Origin: an uncultured virus (IMG/VR IMGVR_UViG_2061766007_000921)
Taxonomy: Duplodnaviria > Heunggongvirae > Uroviricota > Caudoviricetes
DNA: 24,199 nt
IMG/VR virus record: IMGVR_UViG_2061766007_000921
Reading direction: 5' to 3' (one strand)
The translations under genes were made by a program, and so were the position numbers. Each line of letters opens with the position of its first letter. Position 1 is the first letter of the stretch. The notes under the pieces were generated by a model. The model did no database searches and was not told where the DNA came from. It saw only the letters and a list, made by a program, of their open reading frames with translations. Shown here in pieces: positions 1,258 through 24,086 of the stretch.

Positions 1258-1331
1258 TCGGGCGCCCCAGATTCGAACTGGAATTACATCGGTATCAGCG
1301 ATGCGTCCTCAACCTATTAGACGAGCCCCCG
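1258..1331 (-). tRNA. trnI: tRNA-Ile(GAT), CCA not encoded
   Basis: CGGGGGC/GCGCCCG acceptor (one G.G mismatch); GTC/GAC D-stem; CATCG-CTGATAC-CGATG; 4-nt variable loop; TCCAG-TTCGAAT-CTGGG; A73. Confidence 0.88.
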
Positions 1332-1367
1332 AATATTTAAAGAACTATTGTTTCTTGTTTTACATTG

Positions 1368-1398
1368 CAAATATAAAAACTTTTTTTCTACCTGCAAA
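1368..1398 (-). promoter_or_regulatory. Bacteroidota-type housekeeping promoter inside the tRNA operon
   Basis: TTTG (1398-1395), 19 nt, TATATTTG (1375-1368), matching the Bacteroides -33 TTTG / -7 TAnnTTTG consensus. Confidence 0.8.
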
Positions 1399-1414
1399 AT
1401 TTATTTTAAAAATT

Positions 1415-1577
1415 TTATAAAATTGTTTTCTTTCCATTCATACAAGCAATATAATACAATATCTGAGTCTCTGTAAGATTATTAAACCATTCATCAAAAT
1501 ATTTGTAATACTTCTTAATTGTATTATAAGTAAATTCTTTATACAAATAATCTCTTAAATTTTGCCCCGCTTTCCAT
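1415..1577 (-). pseudogene. Small (~53 aa) phage gene with an apparent 1-nt frameshift near its 5' end
   Basis: The ATG at 1577 closes after 12 codons. Removing one base near the GGGG run (1568-1565) gives MESGQNLRDYLYKEFTYNTIKKYYKYFDEWFNNLTETQILYYIACMNGKKTIL*, which fills the gap between tRNA-Arg and the internal promoter. Confidence 0.5.
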
Positions 1578-1599
1578 AATTATAAGTTTTTAATTGTTG

Positions 1600-1672
1600 T
1601 ACCCCCTAGAGGACTCGAACCCCTGCTGAAGCATCCGTAGTGCTTTGTGCTATCCAATTACACCAAGAGGGC
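1600..1672 (-). tRNA. trnR: tRNA-Arg(ACG), CCA not encoded
   Basis: GCCCTCT TG GTGT AATTGGATA GCAC A AAGCA CTACGGA TGCTT CAGC AGGGG TTCGAGT CCTCT AGGGGGT A forms a full cloverleaf. Confidence 0.94.
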
Positions 1673-1681
1673 AATTATATT

Positions 1682-1726
1682 AAAATTAAAACCTCCTTAT
1701 TCTTGTTGTTGAATGAGGAGGTTTTT
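1682..1726 (-). terminator. Attenuator terminator upstream of the tRNA operon
   Basis: AAAACCTCCT-C-ATTC AACAACAA GAAT-A-AGGAGGTTTT followed by AATTTT, ending about 10 nt before tRNA-Arg. Confidence 0.8.
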
Positions 1727-1765
1727 GTATCTTTATATCTTGTTATCTTATACACATCTTCTCAT

Positions 1766-1849
1766 TCAACTTTGTACACAGAGTTTTAAGCGATAATAAA
1801 TCGCTGCTGATTTAATAATGTTAATGGAATATGTGTTTCTTGTTATCAT
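1766..1849 (-). CDS. Putative attenuator leader peptide MITRNTYSINIIKSAAIYYRLKLCVQS (27 aa)
   Basis: Short ORF directly after a consensus promoter; its TGA stop lies inside a strand complementary to the 5' arm of the downstream terminator. Confidence 0.72.
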   Translation of the reverse strand: MITRNTYSINIIKSAAIYYRLKLCVQS

Positions 1850-1867
1850 AATTATAAATTTTATATG

Positions 1868-1898
1868 CAAATATACAAAAAGATTTTTATCTTGCAAA
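1868..1898 (-). promoter_or_regulatory. Bacteroidota-type promoter driving leader peptide and tRNA operon
   Basis: TTTG (1898-1895), 19 nt, TATATTTG (1875-1868). Confidence 0.82.
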
Positions 1899-1934
1899 TT
1901 ATTTATTAAAATTCTGTGAGAAATTTCTCACATT

Positions 1935-2297
1935 TTACAGTTGAACATCTTCTATATCAACACTGGTTGTAATAGTCTTAATTTTTGCTGCTGCAATATT
2001 TTTCCAAACAGCTCTTCCTACTGAAGATGGACCGATGCCATCATATATATCTGTAGTCTTAAACTTTCCTCTTTCAAGCCATGCATTGAATTCTTCTTCA
2101 TTTCTTGTTGATTCTACATTACCGGTTTCATCAGCTACATAATAAATTGTTTCAACATTCTCTGATGGAACTAATTGCAATCTTTTAGGAAACAAAGAAT
2201 CTGACATTCCTTCTGTTATGAATTTCAAAACATCTTTCTTACCATAAGATTCTACAAGTCTTTGAAGCTCTTTTCTATCTTTATCTATTTGTTTCAT
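1935..2297 (-). CDS. Shared-leader family protein 4 (120 aa), putative head-packaged protein
   Basis: Begins MKQIDKDRKELQRLVESYGKKDVLKFITE; start moved to ATG 2297 by alignment with the three paralogues. Confidence 0.85.
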   Translation of the reverse strand: MKQIDKDRKELQRLVESYGKKDVLKFITEGMSDSLFPKRLQLVPSENVETIYYVADETGNVESTRNEEEFNAWLERGKFKTTDIYDGIGPSSVGRAVWKNIAAAKIKTITTSVDIEDVQL

Positions 2298-2313
2298 ATT
2301 TGTATTTTTAAGT

Positions 2314-2904
2314 TTAAATAACAATGCTTTCTATTTTCTTAATTTTATTATCTATAGCTTGTTTCTTCATTTTGAGCTTATTTAAAATATTAGACATTTT
2401 ATTGTTTTCATTAAGATAAGCTTTCAATAAGTTTCTATCTGTTGTTATATAAAGTGCTCCTGTTTTATCTTGAAGTTCTGACTTTCCCTTTATTTTATAT
2501 CTGCAAGATTCATGTTCATAACCTTCCCAATCTCTATGACCTCCTGAAATATTATTATCATAAAATTCTATTACTAATGGAACTCCTTCATATTCAAATT
2601 TAGCACTGTAAGTATAAGCAGTATAAGTAAATTCTGCCTTTTCCCAACCGGTTTCTGTTCTATTATTAACTTTAAAATTTCCAAGATATGTAATTTTATC
2701 TATAAAAAGTTCAGTATCATAATAATTGTCATTAGTAAAAGCAATATACATCTCTGTTCCGGGTGGAGTATTTTGAAGCAAAGGACAATTAATACTTGAC
2801 TTTCTTGCTTCATTTATACTGTCAACATATTTAATTACATCTTTCTTACCATAAGACTCTACAAGTCTCTTAAGAATATTTCTATCTCTAACTATTTGTT
2901 TCAT
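2314..2904 (-). CDS. Shared-leader family protein 3 (196 aa)
   Basis: Begins MKQIVRDRNILKRLVESYGKKDVIKYVDSINE; unrelated body; C-terminal coiled-coil-like tail. Confidence 0.88.
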   Translation of the reverse strand: MKQIVRDRNILKRLVESYGKKDVIKYVDSINEARKSSINCPLLQNTPPGTEMYIAFTNDNYYDTELFIDKITYLGNFKVNNRTETGWEKAEFTYTAYTYSAKFEYEGVPLVIEFYDNNISGGHRDWEGYEHESCRYKIKGKSELQDKTGALYITTDRNLLKAYLNENNKMSNILNKLKMKKQAIDNKIKKIESIVI

Positions 2905-2927
2905 TGTTTGTGCTGTTTTATATTATT

Positions 2928-3710
2928 TTATGAAAGATATATTTGAAGGACTTTTTCTCCTCCCCAATTTGTATAATCTACAACAGAGCCGTAATAACAT
3001 ACAAAATTTGGATCATTTTCATATGATTCATTAGAATCATAATGTTCATCATCATTCTTTTCTACATATACTATATTATCAAGTGACTTATAGTAGTTTC
3101 TACCGTTTCCTTTATAAAAAGCAATAAACAAGTCTGTTCTACATCTTTCACATCCTTCAATATCAACTATACCATCTAAATATCCATTTGGATCTGCATC
3201 AGAAGAGACTGAACCTTCAATTCTTTCTCTATCATATAAACCTTCATTCATATGATAATTTTGAATTGTTTTAAATTTTCTTTCTACTGTATCTTTTAAA
3301 AATTCTAAATGTTTTCTGCAAGTGTCAATAATATCATCTATATCACGTCCAAATTCATATCCGATTCTAAGATATCTTGCTTCGTTAAAAAACTTTCCTA
3401 TCCAATCACACAAAACCTTTAAGTTTTCCTTTGCTTCATAGTCAGAAGAATCATCATATATAAAATATGTACGACCGGGTTTAGAGAATCTTATTTTATC
3501 AATAGATTTAAGAACTGCATCACATCCTGTAAGTTCACACGCTCTTTGAAGATATTCATTACCTGCTTGTTCATATTCATCTGCAAGTGCATCAAATTCA
3601 GAATTAGATTTATATTCATTCAAATGTCTTACATAATTCAAAACATCTTTCTTGCCATAAGACTCTACAAGTCTTTTAAGAGAATTTCTGTCTTTATCAA
3701 TTTGTTTCAT
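2928..3710 (-). CDS. Shared-leader family protein 2 (260 aa)
   Basis: Begins MKQIDKDRNSLKRLVESYGKKDVLNYVRHLNE; internal HMNE/G may separate two cargo domains. Confidence 0.88.
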   Translation of the reverse strand: MKQIDKDRNSLKRLVESYGKKDVLNYVRHLNEYKSNSEFDALADEYEQAGNEYLQRACELTGCDAVLKSIDKIRFSKPGRTYFIYDDSSDYEAKENLKVLCDWIGKFFNEARYLRIGYEFGRDIDDIIDTCRKHLEFLKDTVERKFKTIQNYHMNEGLYDRERIEGSVSSDADPNGYLDGIVDIEGCERCRTDLFIAFYKGNGRNYYKSLDNIVYVEKNDDEHYDSNESYENDPNFVCYYGSVVDYTNWGGEKVLQIYLS

Positions 3711-3728
3711 ATTATAAATCTAAAATTT

Positions 3729-4304
3729 TTAAATTTTTACTGCTCTATTCATCATAGTCTTTATAATACTATCATATGATTCATTACGATGTGTTTTTGC
3801 ATAATTATACATAGTAACAAAATCATTTGCAAATTGTGCAGGATTTGTATATTGAACTTTATATGTTACTTGATTACTATCTTCATCTTCATAACCAACT
3901 AAAAATATAATATCTTCTGTTTCAGGATTAATTAAAAGTGCAGGAGCTAAAATAATATCATCTTTTCTTGGCATCCAATTATTTCTAATAAATTCATCTT
4001 CTACTGGACCATTATTCCAAAGAGTATCGGGAGAAACCCAAATATATCCGTCATCATCTTGATCATAATCTTCAGTCATGAATTCTTCAAAATTGATTCT
4101 TTGCTTACGGAACGCAGCAGTAACAGGAGCTTGTAAATTTCTTACAATATCTTCCAATTCTTCATATTTTTCAAAATCATCTTCATCATCCCACCAATCA
4201 TCAGTGTTTTCATTAAGATGTCTTACATAATTCAAAACATCTTTCTTACCATAAGACTCTACAAGTCTTTTAAGAGAATTTCTGTCTTTATCTATTGGTT
4301 TCAT
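3729..4304 (-). CDS. Shared-leader family protein 1 (191 aa, acidic)
   Basis: Begins MKPIDKDRNSLKRLVESYGKKDVLNYVRHLNE, followed by a D/E-rich body. Confidence 0.88.
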   Translation of the reverse strand: MKPIDKDRNSLKRLVESYGKKDVLNYVRHLNENTDDWWDDEDDFEKYEELEDIVRNLQAPVTAAFRKQRINFEEFMTEDYDQDDDGYIWVSPDTLWNNGPVEDEFIRNNWMPRKDDIILAPALLINPETEDIIFLVGYEDEDSNQVTYKVQYTNPAQFANDFVTMYNYAKTHRNESYDSIIKTMMNRAVKI

Positions 4305-4354
4305 ATTTCTTTACATAAATTTTTATTCACCAAACTTTAAATATTTATTTTAAC

Positions 4355-4381
4355 AAAAAAAGAGAACAAAATGTTCTCTTT
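4355..4381 (-). terminator. Intrinsic terminator
   Basis: AAAGAGAACA-TTT-TGTTCTCTTT plus T-run, 20 nt after the stop at 4401. Confidence 0.8.
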
Positions 4382-4400
4382 CAATTATTCAATTTTATTT

Positions 4401-4730
4401 TTATGAAACATGTATTATATAATCCATTCTACTCCAACCTCCACTAGAATCAACATATTCAATCTTTTTATCTAAAACAGATTTATCTGGAAAATCACTA
4501 AGCAATGAACCATATCGGTATTCACATGTATTTTCATTTAAAACAATATCACTGTTTATAGAAAAATATCCCCACTCTTCTGGATATTCTTTGATAACTT
4601 CGTCTATAAATTCTTTTACAGTAGTTGCTTTATATTTTGTTACACTATATGGAGCAGTGCAATCTCCTCTTTCTGGTCCAACTCTTCTAAATTCCATATC
4701 AAATAAAATTATTTTATTTAAAACATCCAT
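4401..4730 (-). CDS. Hypothetical protein (109 aa)
   Basis: ORF overlaps the end of the upstream gene and is followed by a terminator; no recognised motif. Confidence 0.8.
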   Translation of the reverse strand: MDVLNKIILFDMEFRRVGPERGDCTAPYSVTKYKATTVKEFIDEVIKEYPEEWGYFSINSDIVLNENTCEYRYGSLLSDFPDKSVLDKKIEYVDSSGGWSRMDYIIHVS

Positions 4731-7189
4731 TCAAGAATAGTTGTATAATCTCTTGAAATATCATCGAATGATATTGTATGATCAAGTACATATTGATACT
4801 GTGCTAAATAATCTTCTGTAGTTTCAAATGCTTTAATTACATTTTCTGAAGAATCTTCTTTAAGCTTATTCAAGAAAAATTCTTTAAGTTCTTTAAGTTT
4901 CTTGATAGATTCTTTAAGTTCAGTCTTTGAATATACAGATTCCTCAACTCTACCATCACGGGCTTGAATGTTAGTCTCAATCAATGAATACACATTGAAA
5001 AATCTATCATAATTCAAATATCTATCAATAACACTTATAAATTTGTCATTGTTATAAGATGCTACTACTACTCCAGCATAATCTTCATCTACAATTGTCA
5101 TAGTAAGATCTTCAAGATTAATATATGCACCAACAATATTAACAGAAGGAGAAGTAAGTCTAAATCCAAGAGTCACAGTGTCAGGAGCCCAAGTAGTGTC
5201 ACCTCTCTTTCCAAGTTGATCGCGCTCCATAACTCCACAGTATGCATTCTCTGCTAAAAATCCATGATTGTTAAAATCATTTACAGAAAGAATAAGATGT
5301 TTATATCCTGCTCTTTTTGCACCTTCAATATTAATATCAATATATTCAGCACATTTGCCAACACGATGGCGAACATCACCAGAAAATACCCACCAATTGT
5401 TCTTACTTGAATTGTAGTTATTACAGTTCCAAGAAATAACATTAGGACGTTCATTTCTATAATCATCAGTATATAATGATGCTGACAAATCAAGATCTCT
5501 TGTTCCATCTGGATCTTCCCATCTGCAGTAAAATCTCAAAATTCCAGTTGAATTTTTAAGATTGTATTTAGTTCCCTGAGGAAGCTGACCAACTGCAAAA
5601 TTCATGCTTCTCATATTCTTAGGAAGCATAATATTCTTAAGAGCAGGATCTAAGAAATACTTATCTCCTTCAAGAGAATCCTTTGCTGCAAATCTAGCAA
5701 CCAATTCAGTGTACAAAATATCAAGGATCTTAGATTGATATTTCTCATTCATTTTTTCAAGAGAAGGAAGATTGACAATCTTTCTATCACCTTTCAATAC
5801 TACATAACGCTTGTTAAGCTTTTCATCAGTATTTCTAAGATAAAAATGGTCAAGAAGCTCATAAATCATTTTTGTAGAAATATTATGTGCTGCCTTAGAC
5901 AAAGCATCCAAAACAATGTCTTCACATCCTGGATAATTTCTAATAAGATTATCAATATTTCTGCCAAACTCACCTGGACGTTGCATATAAAGAGCCAAAA
6001 GCTCATCAATATTTCCATTCTTACGAGCGTTTTCTACTCTTCCTGCATAGGTAGAAATATAAGTTCCTGCATTACGAAGAATAACAAACATCTCACAAGT
6101 CTTAGGATATTTCTTGCAATATTCACCAGGATGAAGTACTTCACCAAGACGAATCCAACGCTGACGATATTTCTTCATATCTTCAAGAATCTGCTCCTGC
6201 TTTGCAAGAGAAGAATTTTCAGAAATATACTTCTCAATCATAGCAAGAATATTTCTACGCTCAGCACGTTTAAATTTCTTGAACTTAAATGGAATGCTCT
6301 CTACTCTAAATCTATTCTCAACTTGAGAACGAATAGAATTTACATAACGATTATATACTTCTTCTCCCCAGCGTCTTCTATAATATTCTATAGTCTTATA
6401 ATTACGATCATTGAGAATAGTATCTTTCATATAATTCTGCAATTTAGGAACTGCAGGAAGACAAATATCTCCATCAGAAAGATATACAGCAATTCTAAGA
6501 ATATCTGTAATTGAATTGAACTTAAATTCATTGTCAAGATTACATGCTACTACACAAAGAGTCTCTTTGAATGGAATTTCTTCAGGAAAGACATCATCAT
6601 AAGTTGCAAATGTTCCATCTGCAAACTTAATATCTTTATAATGTTTGCAAAGATATTCTACATTTTCTTTATCTGCAGCAGTAAGAGATTGAGAGCTTGA
6701 AAGAATATTTTTGAAAAGATCAACAAATTCTCTCATAGAGATAGGTTCAATCATCTTATATTCATCATGAAGACAAGAAGCATATACAACACGCATTTCT
6801 GCATCATCTGTAGTCATATGATTTCTCATATCAGCTCCTGTAAGATAATGAATAATCTGTCCCAAGAAAAATTCAGTTTCAGACATTTCCATTACACCGA
6901 ATGGAAAATTTCCAAACAATGATGCATACATACCGTTATCTCCATATGCATCAACAAGATAATTATTAATATCTTTAGCATATGCTGTAAGTTCATCCTC
7001 TGAAAGAGAATTAAGATACTTAACACATTCTGTGCTAAACATAAATCCATATCGCATTACTTCAGCCTGAATCTGAATAACTACTGGAGAAACTTCATCC
7101 ATTTTGAAGTCTTCAATATCAATCTTATTTTCAGTGTTAACAATAAGATATCTTTTTGAAAGAGCGATTGTTTGGAAATTCTTGTTCAT
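4718..7189 (-). CDS. Large stress-response-type protein: helical N-terminal region plus C-terminal TerD-like domain (823 aa)
   Basis: Motifs EIPFKETL, WIRLGEVLHPGEY and QRPGEFGRNID, then TerD-like W...RDLDLSA...FSGDV...AEYIDI. Confidence 0.75.
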   Translation of the reverse strand: MNKNFQTIALSKRYLIVNTENKIDIEDFKMDEVSPVVIQIQAEVMRYGFMFSTECVKYLNSLSEDELTAYAKDINNYLVDAYGDNGMYASLFGNFPFGVMEMSETEFFLGQIIHYLTGADMRNHMTTDDAEMRVVYASCLHDEYKMIEPISMREFVDLFKNILSSSQSLTAADKENVEYLCKHYKDIKFADGTFATYDDVFPEEIPFKETLCVVACNLDNEFKFNSITDILRIAVYLSDGDICLPAVPKLQNYMKDTILNDRNYKTIEYYRRRWGEEVYNRYVNSIRSQVENRFRVESIPFKFKKFKRAERRNILAMIEKYISENSSLAKQEQILEDMKKYRQRWIRLGEVLHPGEYCKKYPKTCEMFVILRNAGTYISTYAGRVENARKNGNIDELLALYMQRPGEFGRNIDNLIRNYPGCEDIVLDALSKAAHNISTKMIYELLDHFYLRNTDEKLNKRYVVLKGDRKIVNLPSLEKMNEKYQSKILDILYTELVARFAAKDSLEGDKYFLDPALKNIMLPKNMRSMNFAVGQLPQGTKYNLKNSTGILRFYCRWEDPDGTRDLDLSASLYTDDYRNERPNVISWNCNNYNSSKNNWWVFSGDVRHRVGKCAEYIDINIEGAKRAGYKHLILSVNDFNNHGFLAENAYCGVMERDQLGKRGDTTWAPDTVTLGFRLTSPSVNIVGAYINLEDLTMTIVDEDYAGVVVASYNNDKFISVIDRYLNYDRFFNVYSLIETNIQARDGRVEESVYSKTELKESIKKLKELKEFFLNKLKEDSSENVIKAFETTEDYLAQYQYVLDHTISFDDISRDYTTILEWMF

Positions 7190-9040: not shown

Positions 9041-10354
9041 TTAAAATAGCGGAGTAGAAGTTCCAAATTTTGGCTTAGCATATTCTTGTGGTTTACTTAA
9101 CCACTCCTCAAATATTTTTTTAGTTGTTTTGTTGCAGAATTGAGAATACTTGTCATAGATCGCCTTCCTCTGCAAAAACTTTATATGATTGTAATAATTC
9201 TTATCTGAAGAAATGAGTTCAACCTTCTTTGCGAAATCCTCAGGGGTAGCAACGTACATAAAGTTCTTAAGTTCTTTATCATCAATATATTTATGATCCT
9301 TATCATATGGTTCATAAACAAAAGCAATTACATCAGACAGCATCGCATCAAAAAATCTAGGAGAAATAAAATCATTAAATGTTATTTCATCTGCAATAAC
9401 AAATGTAGATTTAGCATGTTGTCCAATATAAGGTATCAAATCATCATAAAACAAAGAAGAAACTCTGTCAAATCTTCCATGATCTCTAAACAGGTTCTTT
9501 GATGATGTTATAAGAAGATTCTGACCGTTGACTGCAGTATAGAAATTTTCTATAATCTCCATTCTCTTTGAACCCCTGTTATAACCATGATATTCTGATT
9601 TATATTCTTTAGTATCATAATCATAAGATTTCAATTTATTAGCAACATTGTCTGTCATTGCTTGATAAGTAAAAATTGGAAATGGAGCCCAAAGTTTAAC
9701 AGTCTTTGGAGTAAGTTCATTTCGTGGAGAAAGCTTACTTAAAAATGTAGGATAAGAACTACCACAATGTGCTATAATGCAATTGTTTATACATTTTTCT
9801 ACATTTGGCCAAACATTACAATATTCTTCAAATACAGATTCAGGTACTATATGTCCAAGTGTTTTATACTCGAACATTCTACGATTGAACACAATAAACG
9901 GATTAAGATAATGAATTTCAGGATCATCTTGAATTATATAATAATGACCATCACCGTGTTTTTGATACCACTCATTGACTCTTAATACATTATAAAAGAA
10001 ATCAGAGTAAATATATCCAAGAAACATATTTAATGCAGCTTGAACTTGAAATATATCATCAGCATCATCAAGACAATGAGGCTCTTCAATTTGTCTCATG
10101 CAACCTTTGAAAAAATCAAAATCTGTTTCTGTTCTTCCTTGAAAAGTAGAAGCAAAATATACATTATCATATTCATATACCTCAAGAAGAAAATTCTTAA
10201 GTGCTTCATATGTCTTTGTAGAAATAAGTTTGCTTGACAAAGAAATATATTTTGTCATGCAAATAATTGCTGCAGTTTTTCCCTTTCCGTAACCAGGTTT
10301 AAAATCGGATTTTAAATCAGGAATATTAACATGAATATTCTTTGATTTGTCCAT
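9041..10354 (-). CDS. T4 beta-glucosyltransferase-like DNA glycosyltransferase (GT-B, GT63-like)
   Basis: Colinear resemblance to T4 BGT as recalled: YIIQDD ~ YLFTD (catalytic Asp); YHGYNRGSKR ~ YGGSFRSGQR; FVIADEITFNDFISPRFFDAMLSDV ~ LIIGDKNYNDNFITLRVWETMASDA; YDKDHKYI ~ FDTKHRII. Start at ATG 10354 (TAATG overlap), 437 aa. Confidence 0.8.
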   Translation of the reverse strand: MDKSKNIHVNIPDLKSDFKPGYGKGKTAAIICMTKYISLSSKLISTKTYEALKNFLLEVYEYDNVYFASTFQGRTETDFDFFKGCMRQIEEPHCLDDADDIFQVQAALNMFLGYIYSDFFYNVLRVNEWYQKHGDGHYYIIQDDPEIHYLNPFIVFNRRMFEYKTLGHIVPESVFEEYCNVWPNVEKCINNCIIAHCGSSYPTFLSKLSPRNELTPKTVKLWAPFPIFTYQAMTDNVANKLKSYDYDTKEYKSEYHGYNRGSKRMEIIENFYTAVNGQNLLITSSKNLFRDHGRFDRVSSLFYDDLIPYIGQHAKSTFVIADEITFNDFISPRFFDAMLSDVIAFVYEPYDKDHKYIDDKELKNFMYVATPEDFAKKVELISSDKNYYNHIKFLQRKAIYDKYSQFCNKTTKKIFEEWLSKPQEYAKPKFGTSTPLF

Positions 10355-10833
10355 TAAAGTTTTACTGCCAGTATTCTTTCTAACTCGCTGCATAAATCAT
10401 TATCATTTATATTACATCTATATTTAAATATATTCTTAAATATTATATCGTCATAATTATCAAGATCATATCTACATATTAAATCATTTGTCCAATTATA
10501 ACAAATTTTTTCAAGTTTTTTACAATCATCTATTGTCATACAAGAAGGATAAAGTCCTAATAATCGTTGCAAATATAATTTTTGTATATGATCAAATAGT
10601 TGTCGTTTTACTTCTTCTGATACATTTGATATCCATTCATATTTAGATAATTTCAACCATGACAACGGTACATTATCCTTTTGAATATTACATGTAAATA
10701 TATTATAATTTATACTTCTATCACATTTAAAAAGTATATTTAAAATTAAATTTTCTCTTGAGCAATGTAATACATCTATTCTCCAAGATAATATATATAC
10801 ATTAATGTATTTTTCAACTTTATCTTCTTTCAT
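10354..10833 (-). CDS. Hypothetical protein (159 aa)
   Basis: ORF coupled by overlaps to both neighbours. Confidence 0.7.
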   Translation of the reverse strand: MKEDKVEKYINVYILSWRIDVLHCSRENLILNILFKCDRSINYNIFTCNIQKDNVPLSWLKLSKYEWISNVSEEVKRQLFDHIQKLYLQRLLGLYPSCMTIDDCKKLEKICYNWTNDLICRYDLDNYDDIIFKNIFKYRCNINDNDLCSELERILAVKL

Positions 10834-11167
10834 AATCTAAATAAACATCTCCATATAAAATGGCAGGTTCATCAGGTTCATCAATGCTTAATCCTAATTC
10901 TCTTTTTCTAAAAACTGTTGCTATATAACTTCTAAAGAGTTTAATATTTTCTTGCTCTAATATTTTTTCTTTAATCTCATCTATTGTTTGATAAATCATT
11001 TTTTTATCATTATCAGAATTTATCACAACTTTAATTCGTATATAATCATATGCAAATTTATTAACAATAAAATTATTATCATTTGCAACACAATATACAA
11101 ATCTATTTCCTTCTATTCTATATGAACCTAATATAAGAGATTCATATATAACATTAACAGCTTTCAT
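10820..11167 (-). CDS. Hypothetical protein (115 aa)
   Basis: TAATG overlap with the upstream gene. Confidence 0.75.
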   Translation of the reverse strand: MKAVNVIYESLILGSYRIEGNRFVYCVANDNNFIVNKFAYDYIRIKVVINSDNDKKMIYQTIDEIKEKILEQENIKLFRSYIATVFRKRELGLSIDEPDEPAILYGDVYLDYERR

Positions 11168-11601
11168 TATTTAGCAAAAGATTCAAAACAAGAATTCATT
11201 ATTGAATGAAATTTTTCTGTTATTGTTTCCTTAAGTGATGTATCTTTTTGATGTTCTTTTTTTGTCATATCAAAGAAACTATCATTTTTTAAAGAAAGTA
11301 AAAAATCTTCAATTTCATTTGTATATGCTAATCGAACATTACCATTATAATATGAATGTTTATTATCTCTTTCAATTTTATATGATGAAAATTCATTTTT
11401 TACACCCATTAATACTACTCCTAATCCATTTGCATACATCCATCCATCATGTAAAAATACATTTCCATTATCTACACATGTGAGAAATGTACCAACTCTA
11501 TATTTGCTTTTGCTAGGAATTACAAAATCCATATAATAAAGTTTTCCTGTTGGTAGAGGCATAGGTTGTGTTGATATAGAATTTTGTGATATTTTTTTCA
11601 T
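11167..11601 (-). CDS. Hypothetical protein (144 aa) with N-terminal capsid-protein-like motif
   Basis: Starts 1 nt after the C5-MTase stop; N-terminal STQPMPLPTGKLYYMDF. Confidence 0.78.
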   Translation of the reverse strand: MKKISQNSISTQPMPLPTGKLYYMDFVIPSKSKYRVGTFLTCVDNGNVFLHDGWMYANGLGVVLMGVKNEFSSYKIERDNKHSYYNGNVRLAYTNEIEDFLLSLKNDSFFDMTKKEHQKDTSLKETITEKFHSIMNSCFESFAK

Positions 11602-11602
11602 G

Positions 11603-12829
11603 TTAAAATAATTCTATAGATGAAACTTCTTGATAATCAATCCTTTGTTTGATATTATCTTGTTTTATAAAATTAGAATTAGTCATTTTTAATTCACCAT
11701 TTATAAATTTAATAACATCATTTGTCATATCTTGTGCAGTTTTAACAGGTACATTCTGTGTAACATGTTGAAGATTTCCAGAAATAAGTTCAAAATCTGA
11801 TGGCATTCCCATCATAGCAAGTATTTCTCTTGTTGTTAAAAATCTACATTCTTTTGGATGAAGAGTCCAATGCATATTCTTAGAAATAATTGCATTTGTA
11901 GTTCCTTTATAAACTTGTGGCTGTGGAGCAAAAAATCCAAGTCCCTTTTTAATTTTATCCCAACGATAATTTATATAATACCACGGTGTTCTATGTCCTT
12001 GGTCAGACATCAATCTGTCTTTTCTTGGATCATTTGCTAACCAATCTTTATACTCTTGCCAAAGATTATTGTACTTTATATAATCATAAGGATTACGAAT
12101 AGAATACTTATCAATTTGATTATAAAAGAATTTGATATATTCATCATATGAATCATTACAATATTTCTTCATAATCCAATCCATTTCTGGATAAAGCTCT
12201 TTTGGATTTTTATCAATTATTCTTGTGCATTGTGTTCCGACATTTTTATCAAGAATAAATTTTTCATAAACTTCACCTGGAGTATTATGATAAGGCATAA
12301 CTGGACATTTACCACCTTTCCAGAAAAAGAAAAATGTTCTTACACGTTCTTGTGGAATTCCATGTAATGACGTATTTGTTTTATAAATTGTAAATCCATA
12401 GTTATACTGTTTAGCATAACTTCTAAGAGTATTCAAAACTTTTTCATTTTGTTCAGAATACAATCCTGGCGCATTCTCACCCCAATAAACTTTAGGTTTT
12501 ATATTCTTAAGAGTAAATTCAGCAACTTTATAAAGCCAATTATTAGTAGCATTATCTGCTCCCTTTGTTGCAGTATTCAAATTTGACATTCCTGCACAAG
12601 GACAAACAGAACTTACAAAATCTATATTTGAAAAATCAAGATTTTCATTTAAAGAATTAGTTTCAGAATCTACAACATACCATTTTACATCTTTCCAATA
12701 ATTCTTTAAGTTAGACTCATTCTTTGAAAAAACATCATATGATAAAACACATTCTGGTTTTTTACCAGTAGCATTATAATTTGCAATTGCCATTCCACCA
12801 ATGAGTGGAACAAAACATATATACTTCAT
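11603..12829 (-). CDS. DNA (cytosine-5) methyltransferase, phage type
   Basis: Variant motif I PLIGG; IV CPCAGMS; VI ENAPGL; VIII PQERVR; IX RFLTTRE...MGMPSDF; X QNVPV. Confidence 0.9.
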   Translation of the reverse strand: MKYICFVPLIGGMAIANYNATGKKPECVLSYDVFSKNESNLKNYWKDVKWYVVDSETNSLNENLDFSNIDFVSSVCPCAGMSNLNTATKGADNATNNWLYKVAEFTLKNIKPKVYWGENAPGLYSEQNEKVLNTLRSYAKQYNYGFTIYKTNTSLHGIPQERVRTFFFFWKGGKCPVMPYHNTPGEVYEKFILDKNVGTQCTRIIDKNPKELYPEMDWIMKKYCNDSYDEYIKFFYNQIDKYSIRNPYDYIKYNNLWQEYKDWLANDPRKDRLMSDQGHRTPWYYINYRWDKIKKGLGFFAPQPQVYKGTTNAIISKNMHWTLHPKECRFLTTREILAMMGMPSDFELISGNLQHVTQNVPVKTAQDMTNDVIKFINGELKMTNSNFIKQDNIKQRIDYQEVSSIELF

Positions 12830-22412: not shown

Positions 22413-24086
22413 TTACATTTGAATTGGTCTAACAGAATTTGCAGGTAAATTAATCAATGTTTTTGTTCCATCTTCTAATGTTATAAGAGTTCTAACAGGA
22501 TCACTTGTTCCATTTGAAGAATTGAAATCTTTAAGATTAATAAGAACGTTTCTTAAAACTTCACCTGTTGAAGTTATTTCAACACCTTCTACATAATCAT
22601 TAACATTTGCAAATTCATTTACATCTTCTGTTACTTCAATATATTTTTTCTTAGCAAAAACTTGTTCATTTTCAACAACCATTCTTATGTCATCCTCAGG
22701 TTGTGCTGCAATATATTCTGAATATTTTACAAAACAATTATTTGGAGTGATACGGTTGTTATTCATAAACAATCCACAATGAACAAATTGTTCAAACAAT
22801 CCTTTCAAAGTAGCTTCATCATATTTATACGGATTCTCTACAGTATCAGGACGATTTCTTAACATCTTAACCTGTGACTGTGAATATTCAAGAGTTCTTC
22901 CGTTTACATTAATAATAAAGTTATTGTTAAAAGGAAGCTTAGCAATTATTTGTCCATTACCTGCAGGACAAGACACCCAATCAAGGACATTTGGCTCTGC
23001 ATATTTTATTTTTTGCTCAGAAGCTTTTGGATCTTCAGATTCATTAAGTTTTGAAACTTTCTTTGGAGTTTCTACTGATTCTCCAATTTTTTGTTTCTTT
23101 CTTACTTTGAATTTGAATTTCTTTTCAGGTTTACTTTCTTCAGATTTTTCATCTGAATCTTCTGATGATTCTTCAGATTTTTCTGAGTCTTCAGATTTTT
23201 CATCATCATTTTCTTTGTTTGAATCATCTTTTGACTCATCATCTTTTTTATCATCTTCATCATCTTTACCTTCATCTGAAGAATCATCGTCTGATGAGAA
23301 TAAAGCGCTCTCAGAAGTTTCAAAAGTTGTATTTACATCTTTGAAAGGATCGCTCATTTCCTGACTCTCATCAGAAGAATCTGATACAACATTTTTATCA
23401 GTATCAATGTCATCAGTGTCAAGAGTTACTTTTTTACCAGTTTTGGTATCTTCTATAGTAATCTTAACTCCTTCATTCAACAATTCTTCAGACAATTGAA
23501 AAAAATCCTTTACTGAAATAGGAGTCTTTTCACCGTAAAATGATTCTAAAAGTTTTTTAGTCTTTTTGCAATCTTCTGGACGAATTGCAATTCTCATAGA
23601 CTCATCTATACGGCCAACAGAAATTCCTTTACCTTTTAGCTTCTGCTCTAAAAATCCATTATAAGGAACATCTATTGTAATATTTGATTCATTAATACCT
23701 TTAAATTCTTTTTCGTTTTGATATCTTTCAAGAAACATTTTTGCATCTTCATCAATATTTCCATCCTTTGATGCTGCATATGTACTTAAAGTTTTATATA
23801 AGTCCTTTGTTTCTTTAAAGCTTTCTGTAACGATTACAATATGGTCAGCAACTTTGTTTGATGAACCAAACATTGCAGCATAATCTGCAGTATAAGGAAG
23901 AACAACTTTTACCTTTCCTTTGCTGTTGTCACGAAAAAGAACAGATTCATTTATTGCTTTTACTTCTTTAATTTGTAATGACTCATTTGCAGGAGCAACA
24001 TCAATTGTTGAAGGTTTATTACTTATACAATTTTTTAATTCAGGGAAGAACGTGCAGAATTGAGCTTCTGAGAAGTTTTTCCACTC
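22413..24086 (-). CDS. Large acidic protein, 5'-truncated by the assembly gap; possible prohead core or internal head protein
   Basis: The frame stays open from the annotated ATG (23873) to the N-run (EWKNFSEAQF...YAAMFGSS). Contains a D/E/S/K low-complexity tract and many INES/IDES/LLES/LNEG/IGES/LNES motifs. Confidence 0.8.
   Translation of the reverse strand, partial: EWKNFSEAQFCTFFPELKNCISNKPSTIDVAPANESLQIKEVKAINESVLFRDNSKGKVKVVLPYTADYAAMFGSSNKVADHIVIVTESFKETKDLYKTLSTYAASKDGNIDEDAKMFLERYQNEKEFKGINESNITIDVPYNGFLEQKLKGKGISVGRIDESMRIAIRPEDCKKTKKLLESFYGEKTPISVKDFFQLSEELLNEGVKITIEDTKTGKKVTLDTDDIDTDKNVVSDSSDESQEMSDPFKDVNTTFETSESALFSSDDDSSDEGKDDEDDKKDDESKDDSNKENDDEKSEDSEKSEESSEDSDEKSEESKPEKKFKFKVRKKQKIGESVETPKKVSKLNESEDPKASEQKIKYAEPNVLDWVSCPAGNGQIIAKLPFNNNFIINVNGRTLEYSQSQVKMLRNRPDTVENPYKYDEATLKGLFEQFVHCGLFMNNNRITPNNCFVKYSEYIAAQPEDDIRMVVENEQVFAKKKYIEVTEDVNEFANVNDYVEGVEITSTGEVLRNVLINLKDFNSSNGTSDPVRTLITLEDGTKTLINLPANSVRPIQM

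Follow-up and report, generated by a model that had tools for sequence, protein, structure and literature searches.

The stretch of viral DNA analysed here (the window, 24,199 nucleotides (nt) long) comes from a 148 kilobase (kb) contig that represents a 27%-complete virus record, and it carries at 1935..4304 an array of four tandem minus-strand open reading frames (ORFs), all of which start with MKxIxxDRxxLxRLVESYGKKDV and share an N-terminal tag that ends at HLNE, HLNE, SINE and FITE in genes 1, 2, 3 and 4, respectively (Table 1). An earlier note, made from the letters of this DNA, had described four such genes in which a common leader breaks off abruptly and is followed by unrelated cargo, the leaders of the first two genes being near-identical as DNA. 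The ORFs, the repeat DNA and the profile scores given below agree with that description: among the window's direct repeats the tag DNA forms the top-ranking family, with four copies of 99 nt that are 77-95% identical to the copy at 3615-3713 (95% for the copy at 4209-4307), and a mutual blastp comparison of the four cargos gave no significant similarity (best E 0.024). Pieces from the likely source run tile 1700-4800 with no differing letters; they break within the leader repeats, so that the order of the cassettes rests on the original assembly.

Table 1. Features of the array and its surroundings in the window (aa, amino acids; G001, a relative genome, and X6, a contig from a related strain, are described in the text).
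Feature	Position	Strand	Description
Gene 1	3729..4304	-	191 aa: tag + 159-aa acidic cargo, net charge -22
Tag 1	4209..4304	-	32 aa, ends HLNE
Gene 2	2928..3710	-	260 aa: tag, cargo A of 124 aa, cargo B of 104 aa; net charge -18
Tag 2	3615..3710	-	32 aa, ends HLNE; DNA 95% identical to tag 1
Internal HMNE	3243..3254	-	residues 153-156 of gene 2; joint between cargos A and B; crossover point in X6
Gene 3	2314..2904	-	196 aa: tag + 164-aa cargo, net charge +1; untagged homologue in G001
Tag 3	2809..2904	-	32 aa, ends SINE
Gene 4	1935..2297	-	120 aa from ATG: short tag + 91-aa cargo, net charge -5
Tag 4	2211..2297	-	29 aa, ends FITE; 3 residues shorter than the other tags
Terminator-like hairpin and T run	4358..4382	-	11 pairs, then TTTG; closes the upstream operon
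AATAAATA, late-promoter-like motif	4342..4349	-	45 nt before gene 1; putatively gp55-type
Weak terminator-like hairpin	1915..1932	-	after the last gene, before the tRNA cluster
tRNA-Arg	1599-1672		part of the tRNA cluster adjoining the array

The four tags score 67-71 bits against a profile that was built from them, which makes these values circular; the next-best segment in a six-frame translation of the 148-kb contig reaches 8.2 bits, and the contig holds exactly four copies. Three tag copies in another genome, which lay outside the building set of profile A3, score 58-74 bits, and it is because of these that the shared tag, as judged from sequence scores, is far beyond chance. A search for the exact leader DNA in viral contigs returned 0 matches.

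Gene 2 calls for one correction to the earlier description: two cargos are joined in it at an internal HMNE (residue 156). Cargo A stands alone behind a tag in the proteins P0110 and P0114 (35% identity), and cargo B does so in P0020, at locus L036 (97%) and in P0098 (83%), starting exactly after the residues that correspond to the window's internal HMNE. That gene 2 is two cargos is concluded from a related strain, because its contig X6 joins tag 1 in frame to cargo B exactly at the HLNE/HMNE codons. The end of cargo A (window 3243-3266, IQNYHMNE) resembles the tag end minus two codons and is possibly left over from a second tag. The gene 4 cargo carries a full-length tag in P0126.

The earlier note had suggested running a profile of the leader against this genome and its relatives, and this count yields the four own copies, 95 proteins and the cargo families described below. 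When residues 1-40 of gene 1 served as query in a word-based search, 84 proteins were found, in 83 of which LNE or INE lies exactly 9 residues past the core motif, the remaining one stopping before the site. The profile search, across 1.84 billion representatives, gave 95 matches, one of them false (P0162); 93 modules could be scored, of which 79 end in LNE, INE or LDE and 86 in E. An unbiased set was picked by a DNA pattern that stops at V23, before the site, and here all 19 tag copies outside the window, in eight loci, end (L/I)(N/D)E. D7, Y18, G19, D22 and E32 are invariant in 59/59 aligned proteins, E32 is never replaced by Asp, and conservation collapses at residue 33 of the same alignment; across the family the tag is 29-35 residues long. 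Two AlphaFold models, at modest confidence, show a helix, a turn at Gly19 and a second helix that runs to residue 32, the helices being amphipathic and arranged around the invariant Tyr-Gly turn; the predicted shape of the tag is a two-helix hairpin. LVE↓S (↓ marks a cut), which lies inside the tag, was set aside as the main cut site, as the remote members P0163-P0166 replace it.

The tag is a leader, as the earlier note had it, in most proteins, and it is also found elsewhere: it is internal in 15 of the 95, in G001 a further copy lies inside a 642-aa protein, and stand-alone forms occur as a 45-aa ORF in G001 and as the 44-aa P0155. Because of the internal copies and the tiny stand-alone protein, the sequences indicate that the tag is a portable module and not a strict leader. 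Eight of the 15 internal copies sit behind one common domain of about 270-320 residues, and an upstream hydrophobic-x-E site precedes 10 of the 15 (a pattern chosen after viewing them). Several internal copies keep an in-frame Met, and some may be fusions with an internal start. Many arrays open with a gene in which this domain of about 270-320 residues stands before the tag (L029:1439-2575, L031:5239-6552, L033:507-1817, L036:1831-3021; also P0086, P0130, P0136, P0137, P0142 and P0152), and the domain has no Pfam or PHROG match.

Among 23 DNA copies of the tag, differences per codon position amount to 0.17 at first, 0.085 at second and 0.40 at third positions, and because they concentrate on third positions, selection as read from these copies acts on the tag peptide. 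This bears on the possibility that the repeat is mainly a DNA element, a translation start and recombination handle as in T4-like hyperplastic regions, with the peptide as a passive by-product. The 95% identity of the first two tag DNAs would fit such an element, as would exchanges that map to the tag and copies that are slightly more alike within a locus than between loci (0.813 vs 0.777, permutation p 0.008, a difference that kinship alone could produce). The excess of third-position differences runs against it, however, as does the fact that the five invariant residues are kept though most of their codons vary and that internal in-frame copies serve no translation start, and we consider this explanation very improbable.

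The position of the locus is kept between an 823-aa gene and the tRNA cluster, whereas its content differs in each of eight relative loci. The turnover of cargo among relatives that the earlier note had anticipated is also seen when 94 cargos (90 from the profile search, the false match included, and the window's four) are clustered, which yields 54 clusters at E 1e-5 and 49 at 1e-3. Related-strain contigs differ from the window in all four runs, from four studies; they were placed at 85% likeness, a level at which joints from repeats or from other organisms are possible. In X6 the joint at 4216/3249 skips 966 nt (322 codons) in frame and leads from tag 1 to cargo B; it has 5 ambiguous letters at the site and 255 letters on its shorter side, and the same form is backed by P0020 and L036. 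In X3, X5 and X9 the promoter leads straight into a gene-4-type tag; X3 and X9 continue with 460 unlike letters, after which a gene-1-type tag comes, and X9 has another cassette after gene 3. Repeated tag DNA, even the bare AATGAA cut-site codons, act as crossover points, and new fusions therefore stay in frame and keep the release site. The proposal of the earlier note that leader DNA serves as a recombination handle holds insofar as exchange occurs at or near the tag in related strains; conservation, in contrast, is at the protein level, which makes the handle a side effect. The gene 3 cargo has an untagged homologue downstream of the G001 capsid gene (27% in an alignment of 157 columns; E 2e-6 with 356 ORFs compared), so that tags are gained or lost.

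The phage is an uncultured T4-type jumbo phage of the cattle gut. Its own contig encodes a T4-type portal, a gp55-like late sigma factor, a tRNA cluster and a weak beta-glucosyltransferase PHROG match, and most of the sequencing runs in which the stretch is present carry the label of bovine or goat gut. The relative G001 (364 kb, 94% complete), found by a degenerate DNA pattern for the tag core, has 94 of the contig's 128 ORFs in common with it, at a median identity of 55.6% and largely in the same order. With the glycosyltransferase-like gene as query, only the same two near-identical 364-kb records were matched, so one complete relative was studied. Since the G001 capsid protein is 50% identical to Prevotella Lak phage capsid proteins, a Bacteroidota host is likely on sequence grounds. 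Both PF03420 (gp21-family protease) and PF07068 (gp23) lie over cut-off in G001: a 688-aa ORF (C1:350382-352448) fuses a gp21-family prohead protease to a long acidic scaffold-like region, and gp23 follows it. The protease has a predicted cut site at residue 19, HLNE↓S, with the same letters as the tag end, and the capsid protein has one at 51, ALNE↓E; the LNE sites in both proteins match the terminal site of the tag. The Lak-A1 capsid protein likewise has LNE in its N-terminal part.

The array lies behind its own terminator (4382-4358) and a AATAAATA element (4349-4342), both as the earlier note had described, and 1300-5000 contains 4 terminator-like hairpins against 0.8 in shuffles. NATAAATA occurs no more than 120 nt upstream of 29/128 own ORFs (9 antisense) and of 79/356 G001 ORFs (34 antisense), mostly near -30, and the G001 genes behind it include those for the capsid protein, the protease-scaffold fusion and the portal. 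Of the 8 testable loci, 7 have the motif [AGT]ATAAATA ahead of one or more tagged genes (L031 is negative and L036 is cut off). From this motif, common to head genes, we infer that the array is expressed late. RNA runs X19 and X20 gave few contigs of 151-228 nt at a depth of 2-3, which is too thin, and X22 gave no reads.

A hairpin of the kind predicted for the tag could also be a retained self-association or docking domain that recruits cargos to a partner outside the head (the replication or transcription machinery, the membrane, or each other), with LNE marking no more than where helix 2 stops. The amphipathic character of both predicted helices and the invariant turn between them, the internal and stand-alone copies, and a length far beyond the 10 residues that suffice in T4, according to the part of the T4 literature cited below, all suit such a domain. 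Nevertheless, the invariant terminal Glu and hydrophobic P3 residue match the N-terminal sites of the capsid protein and protease, the same site also delimits cargo B and the internal copies, the array has the late motif upstream of it, and the tag found no solved-domain match among PDB sequences (best E 0.92); on balance we judge a retained domain improbable.

We therefore turn to the reading that we prefer, in which the tag is a core-docking, protease-released capsid-loading tag that works like the capsid-targeting sequence (CTS) of T4 but has no sequence match to it; this is reasonably probable. The hairpin tag would dock each late-made protein onto the prohead core, cuts by a gp21-family protease after E32 and elsewhere at sites of this kind would free the cargo, which would stay in the mature head and possibly be injected with the DNA, and recombination at the repeated tag and cut-site codons would swap cassettes in frame with the release site intact. 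Cleavage after E32 is very likely; packaging of the tagged proteins is likely; and injection with an anti-defence or host-takeover role has somewhat less than an even chance. Injection and anti-defence are the weakest steps, and they rest on analogy and turnover. The T4-style modular loading that the earlier note had envisaged thus finds points in its favour in the portal, the gp55-like sigma factor, the gp21-family protease of the relative, the LNE sites, the late motif and the turnover of cargo, and remains a conditional reading of them.

Several observations weigh against head loading. The protease and capsid genes are known from G001 and are absent from the 27%-complete contig itself. Seven of the 93 full-length modules lack E at position 32, and the E32 counts from the word and profile searches are partly selected, since the queries included the site. 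Within residues 1-55, G001 late-motif genes show no enrichment of the narrow pattern [LI][ND]E (8/71 vs 31/285, p=1.0); a broader site pattern, chosen afterwards, is (23/71 vs 34/285). Many non-head genes are also preceded by NATAAATA. The tag is three times as long as the T4 CTS, the confidence of its predicted fold is low (predicted local distance difference test (pLDDT) 48-77), and it is internal in 15 proteins. Finally, the cargos are mostly acidic, with a median net charge per residue of -0.089 (n=89) vs -0.015 (n=427) in a comparison in which the cargos are not independent; 65% of cargos vs 17% of other ORFs lie below -0.05 per residue.

What the cargos do is addressed by family and fold searches. 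A set of 87 tagged proteins (86 of the 95, with 8 short ones and P0162 left out, plus P0012) was compared with family libraries, and matches were found for 3/87 in Pfam and 4/87 in PHROGs; no enzyme or anti-defence family was recognised in these 87 proteins except for one weak vWA match and two doubtful ones. An RmlD match in P0006 probably reflects a chimera, as P0107 has the same cargo start without RmlD. On the four window genes Pfam and PHROGs gave nothing convincing; gene 1 as query found no relatives in viral contigs and no match among 50,697 phage records, and gene 1 and cargo 3 had no usable match in the ESM Atlas. Fold searches gave no hit at E <= 0.001 in BFVD (genes 1 and 2) or the PDB (gene 2). 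The gene 1 cargo is predicted to adopt an alpha/beta fold without a known match; its best fold comparison (VIA Z 5.9) is within noise, and the rows for PsiB, MotA and AcrIIA11 were not used. The prediction for cargo B has a pLDDT under 50. Tagged cargos P0014, P0091 and P0104 also look like lone vWA domains.

Cargos that are packaged and cleaved might act within the head as accessory core or filler, through acidic counter-charge or the tuning of assembly, and not be injected at all. Their acidity, like that of scaffold proteins, would fit this, as would the head-assembly defects of T4 IPIII mutants given in the available part of PMC9026906 and the near-absence of recognisable enzyme or anti-defence families noted above. 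Some fifty unrelated folded families with strain-level turnover nevertheless fit an arms race better, and the cargos do not have the dense cut sites of scaffold-like proteins: internal sites number 39 against 31.2 expected, so that the cargos are not rich in them and would therefore survive maturation. We rate a filler role as distinctly improbable. A more elaborate version of the head-loading proposal, which we regard as rather unlikely, is that a portable core-docking hairpin excised on both sides forms a combinatorial polyprotein cassette that delivers about 50 injected counter-defence cargo families against rumen Bacteroidota. In that version, and just as tentatively, the cut-site codons double as the crossover point and the acidic cargos may be, for example, DNA mimics.

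Other parts of the two genomes touch on the same subjects. In the window, the beta-glucosyltransferase-like gene, for which PHROGs gave a weak match and which is 82% identical in G001, lies close to a C5 cytosine methyltransferase (9041-12829); these two genes suggest modified DNA, and it is in such a setting that T4 needs IPI. The 823-aa gene (window 4718-7189; phrog_33734, function unknown) is conserved next to the array, on its upstream side, in the window and at L031, L033 and L035, and in G001 it is also upstream of the array with tRNAs in between; as a query its protein found no relatives in viral contigs. The stand-alone 45-aa ORF of G001 (C1:50441-50527, L009) is a diverged tag-like sequence directly before a 1601-aa acidic protein that has 12 [LIM][ND]E sites vs 4.2 expected and whose C-terminal part corresponds to window 22413-23873. 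The tag may have arisen from such a stand-alone ORF (L009 and P0155), or the ORF may act as a regulator; the 1601-aa protein may be a candidate partner. Three G001 genes (C1:255967-257511, 257508-259190 and 267777-268874) have a second, different N-terminal tag, MxIxYI(S/T)E↓GVFKNP, and several other late-motif genes of G001 start with a short stretch whose last letters are LYE or LVE; possibly the phage has more than one tag for head loading. In genome G000 (C1:96577-105361) an AAA-type protein is next to one of 1537 aa that has a vWA-like motif; these two and a partial paralogue all contain LNE or LDE sites, and the arrangement resembles the MoxR-vWA pair of group 2.2 jumbo phages in the available text of PMC7824862. 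The end of the window's contig (24035-24199) repeats 22638-22739 (102 nt, 98%) beside a run of N and is an assembly artefact, and the 486-aa ORF (22413-23873) probably represents the truncated end of a gene that is much longer.

Several known systems invite comparison. In the phiKZ-like giant phage SPN3US, as the available part of PMC5694885 presents it for gp47, gp53 and gp54, propeptides are longer than those of T4 and have more than one Glu site; the present tag has LVE↓S inside and LNE at its end. Identical N-termini on diverged proteins, with a proposed targeting role, are a further likeness. The SPN3US proteins are, however, mostly paralogous core virion proteins with A/S-x-E sites from another lineage, whereas here one portable tag heads unrelated, strain-variable cargos. 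The Prevotella Lak megaphages are the closest named relatives by capsid protein (50%); they too have LNE in the N-terminal part of that protein and, judged by eye, a homologue-like acidic protein near the capsid gene. They differ in size (about 540 kb vs about 364 kb here) and in reading TAG as Gln, while here ORFs cover 89-91% in table 11, and a quick first look with the tag profile found no match in Lak-A1, which is weak evidence of absence. The Jug phages are, in the available part of PMC12880540, a gut clade of 360-402 kb defined by genome identity; G001, at 364 kb, falls within this range and was compared in length only. No description of this tag was found in the literature, including the accessible parts of PMC12880540 and PMC7824862; subscription journals or supplements may hold one.

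The closest parallel in principle is T4, whose internal proteins are described in the accessible text of PMC3012670 as diverse defence proteins in which only the CTS is conserved. According to the part of PMC9026906 that is available, the CTS has 10-19 residues, of which 10 suffice, the internal proteins are basic, and processing fails if the cut position is occupied by Asp; in the available part of 10.1101/2022.04.14.488369, IPIII is required on one E. coli strain and functions from the cytoplasm without its CTS. The present array resembles this system in a tag ending hydrophobic-x-Glu on unrelated small proteins, in cargo that varies among relatives, in a T4-type portal on its own contig with a gp21-family protease and capsid in G001, and in the packaging and release proposed here. 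It differs in that the tag has about 30 residues and is predicted to be folded, is internal in 15/95 proteins and also stands alone where the T4 CTS is strictly an N-terminal propeptide, and heads mostly acidic cargos where T4 internal proteins are small and basic; here there are about fifty cargo families and a protease fused to a scaffold, all known from sequence. No homology to the T4 CTS or internal proteins was found in the 50,697 phage records (gene 1), PHROGs or PDB sequences, searches whose sensitivity short tags fall below. The array is not filed as a member of the T4 CTS group, because a short, strictly N-terminal tag and basic cargo are not what is found. If the head-loading reading is true, the tag offers a one-motif handle for mining about 50 orphan families that abundant ruminant-gut jumbo phages likely deliver at infection, and the tagged cargos could go directly into anti-defence screens. 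Recognition of the prohead core by T4-type tags would be far easier to map with a folded hairpin of 26 residues, five of them invariant, that also exists in a natural stand-alone form than with a 10-residue peptide, and the strain data show how tag loci gain and shuffle cargo. The underlying principle is one already known from T4.

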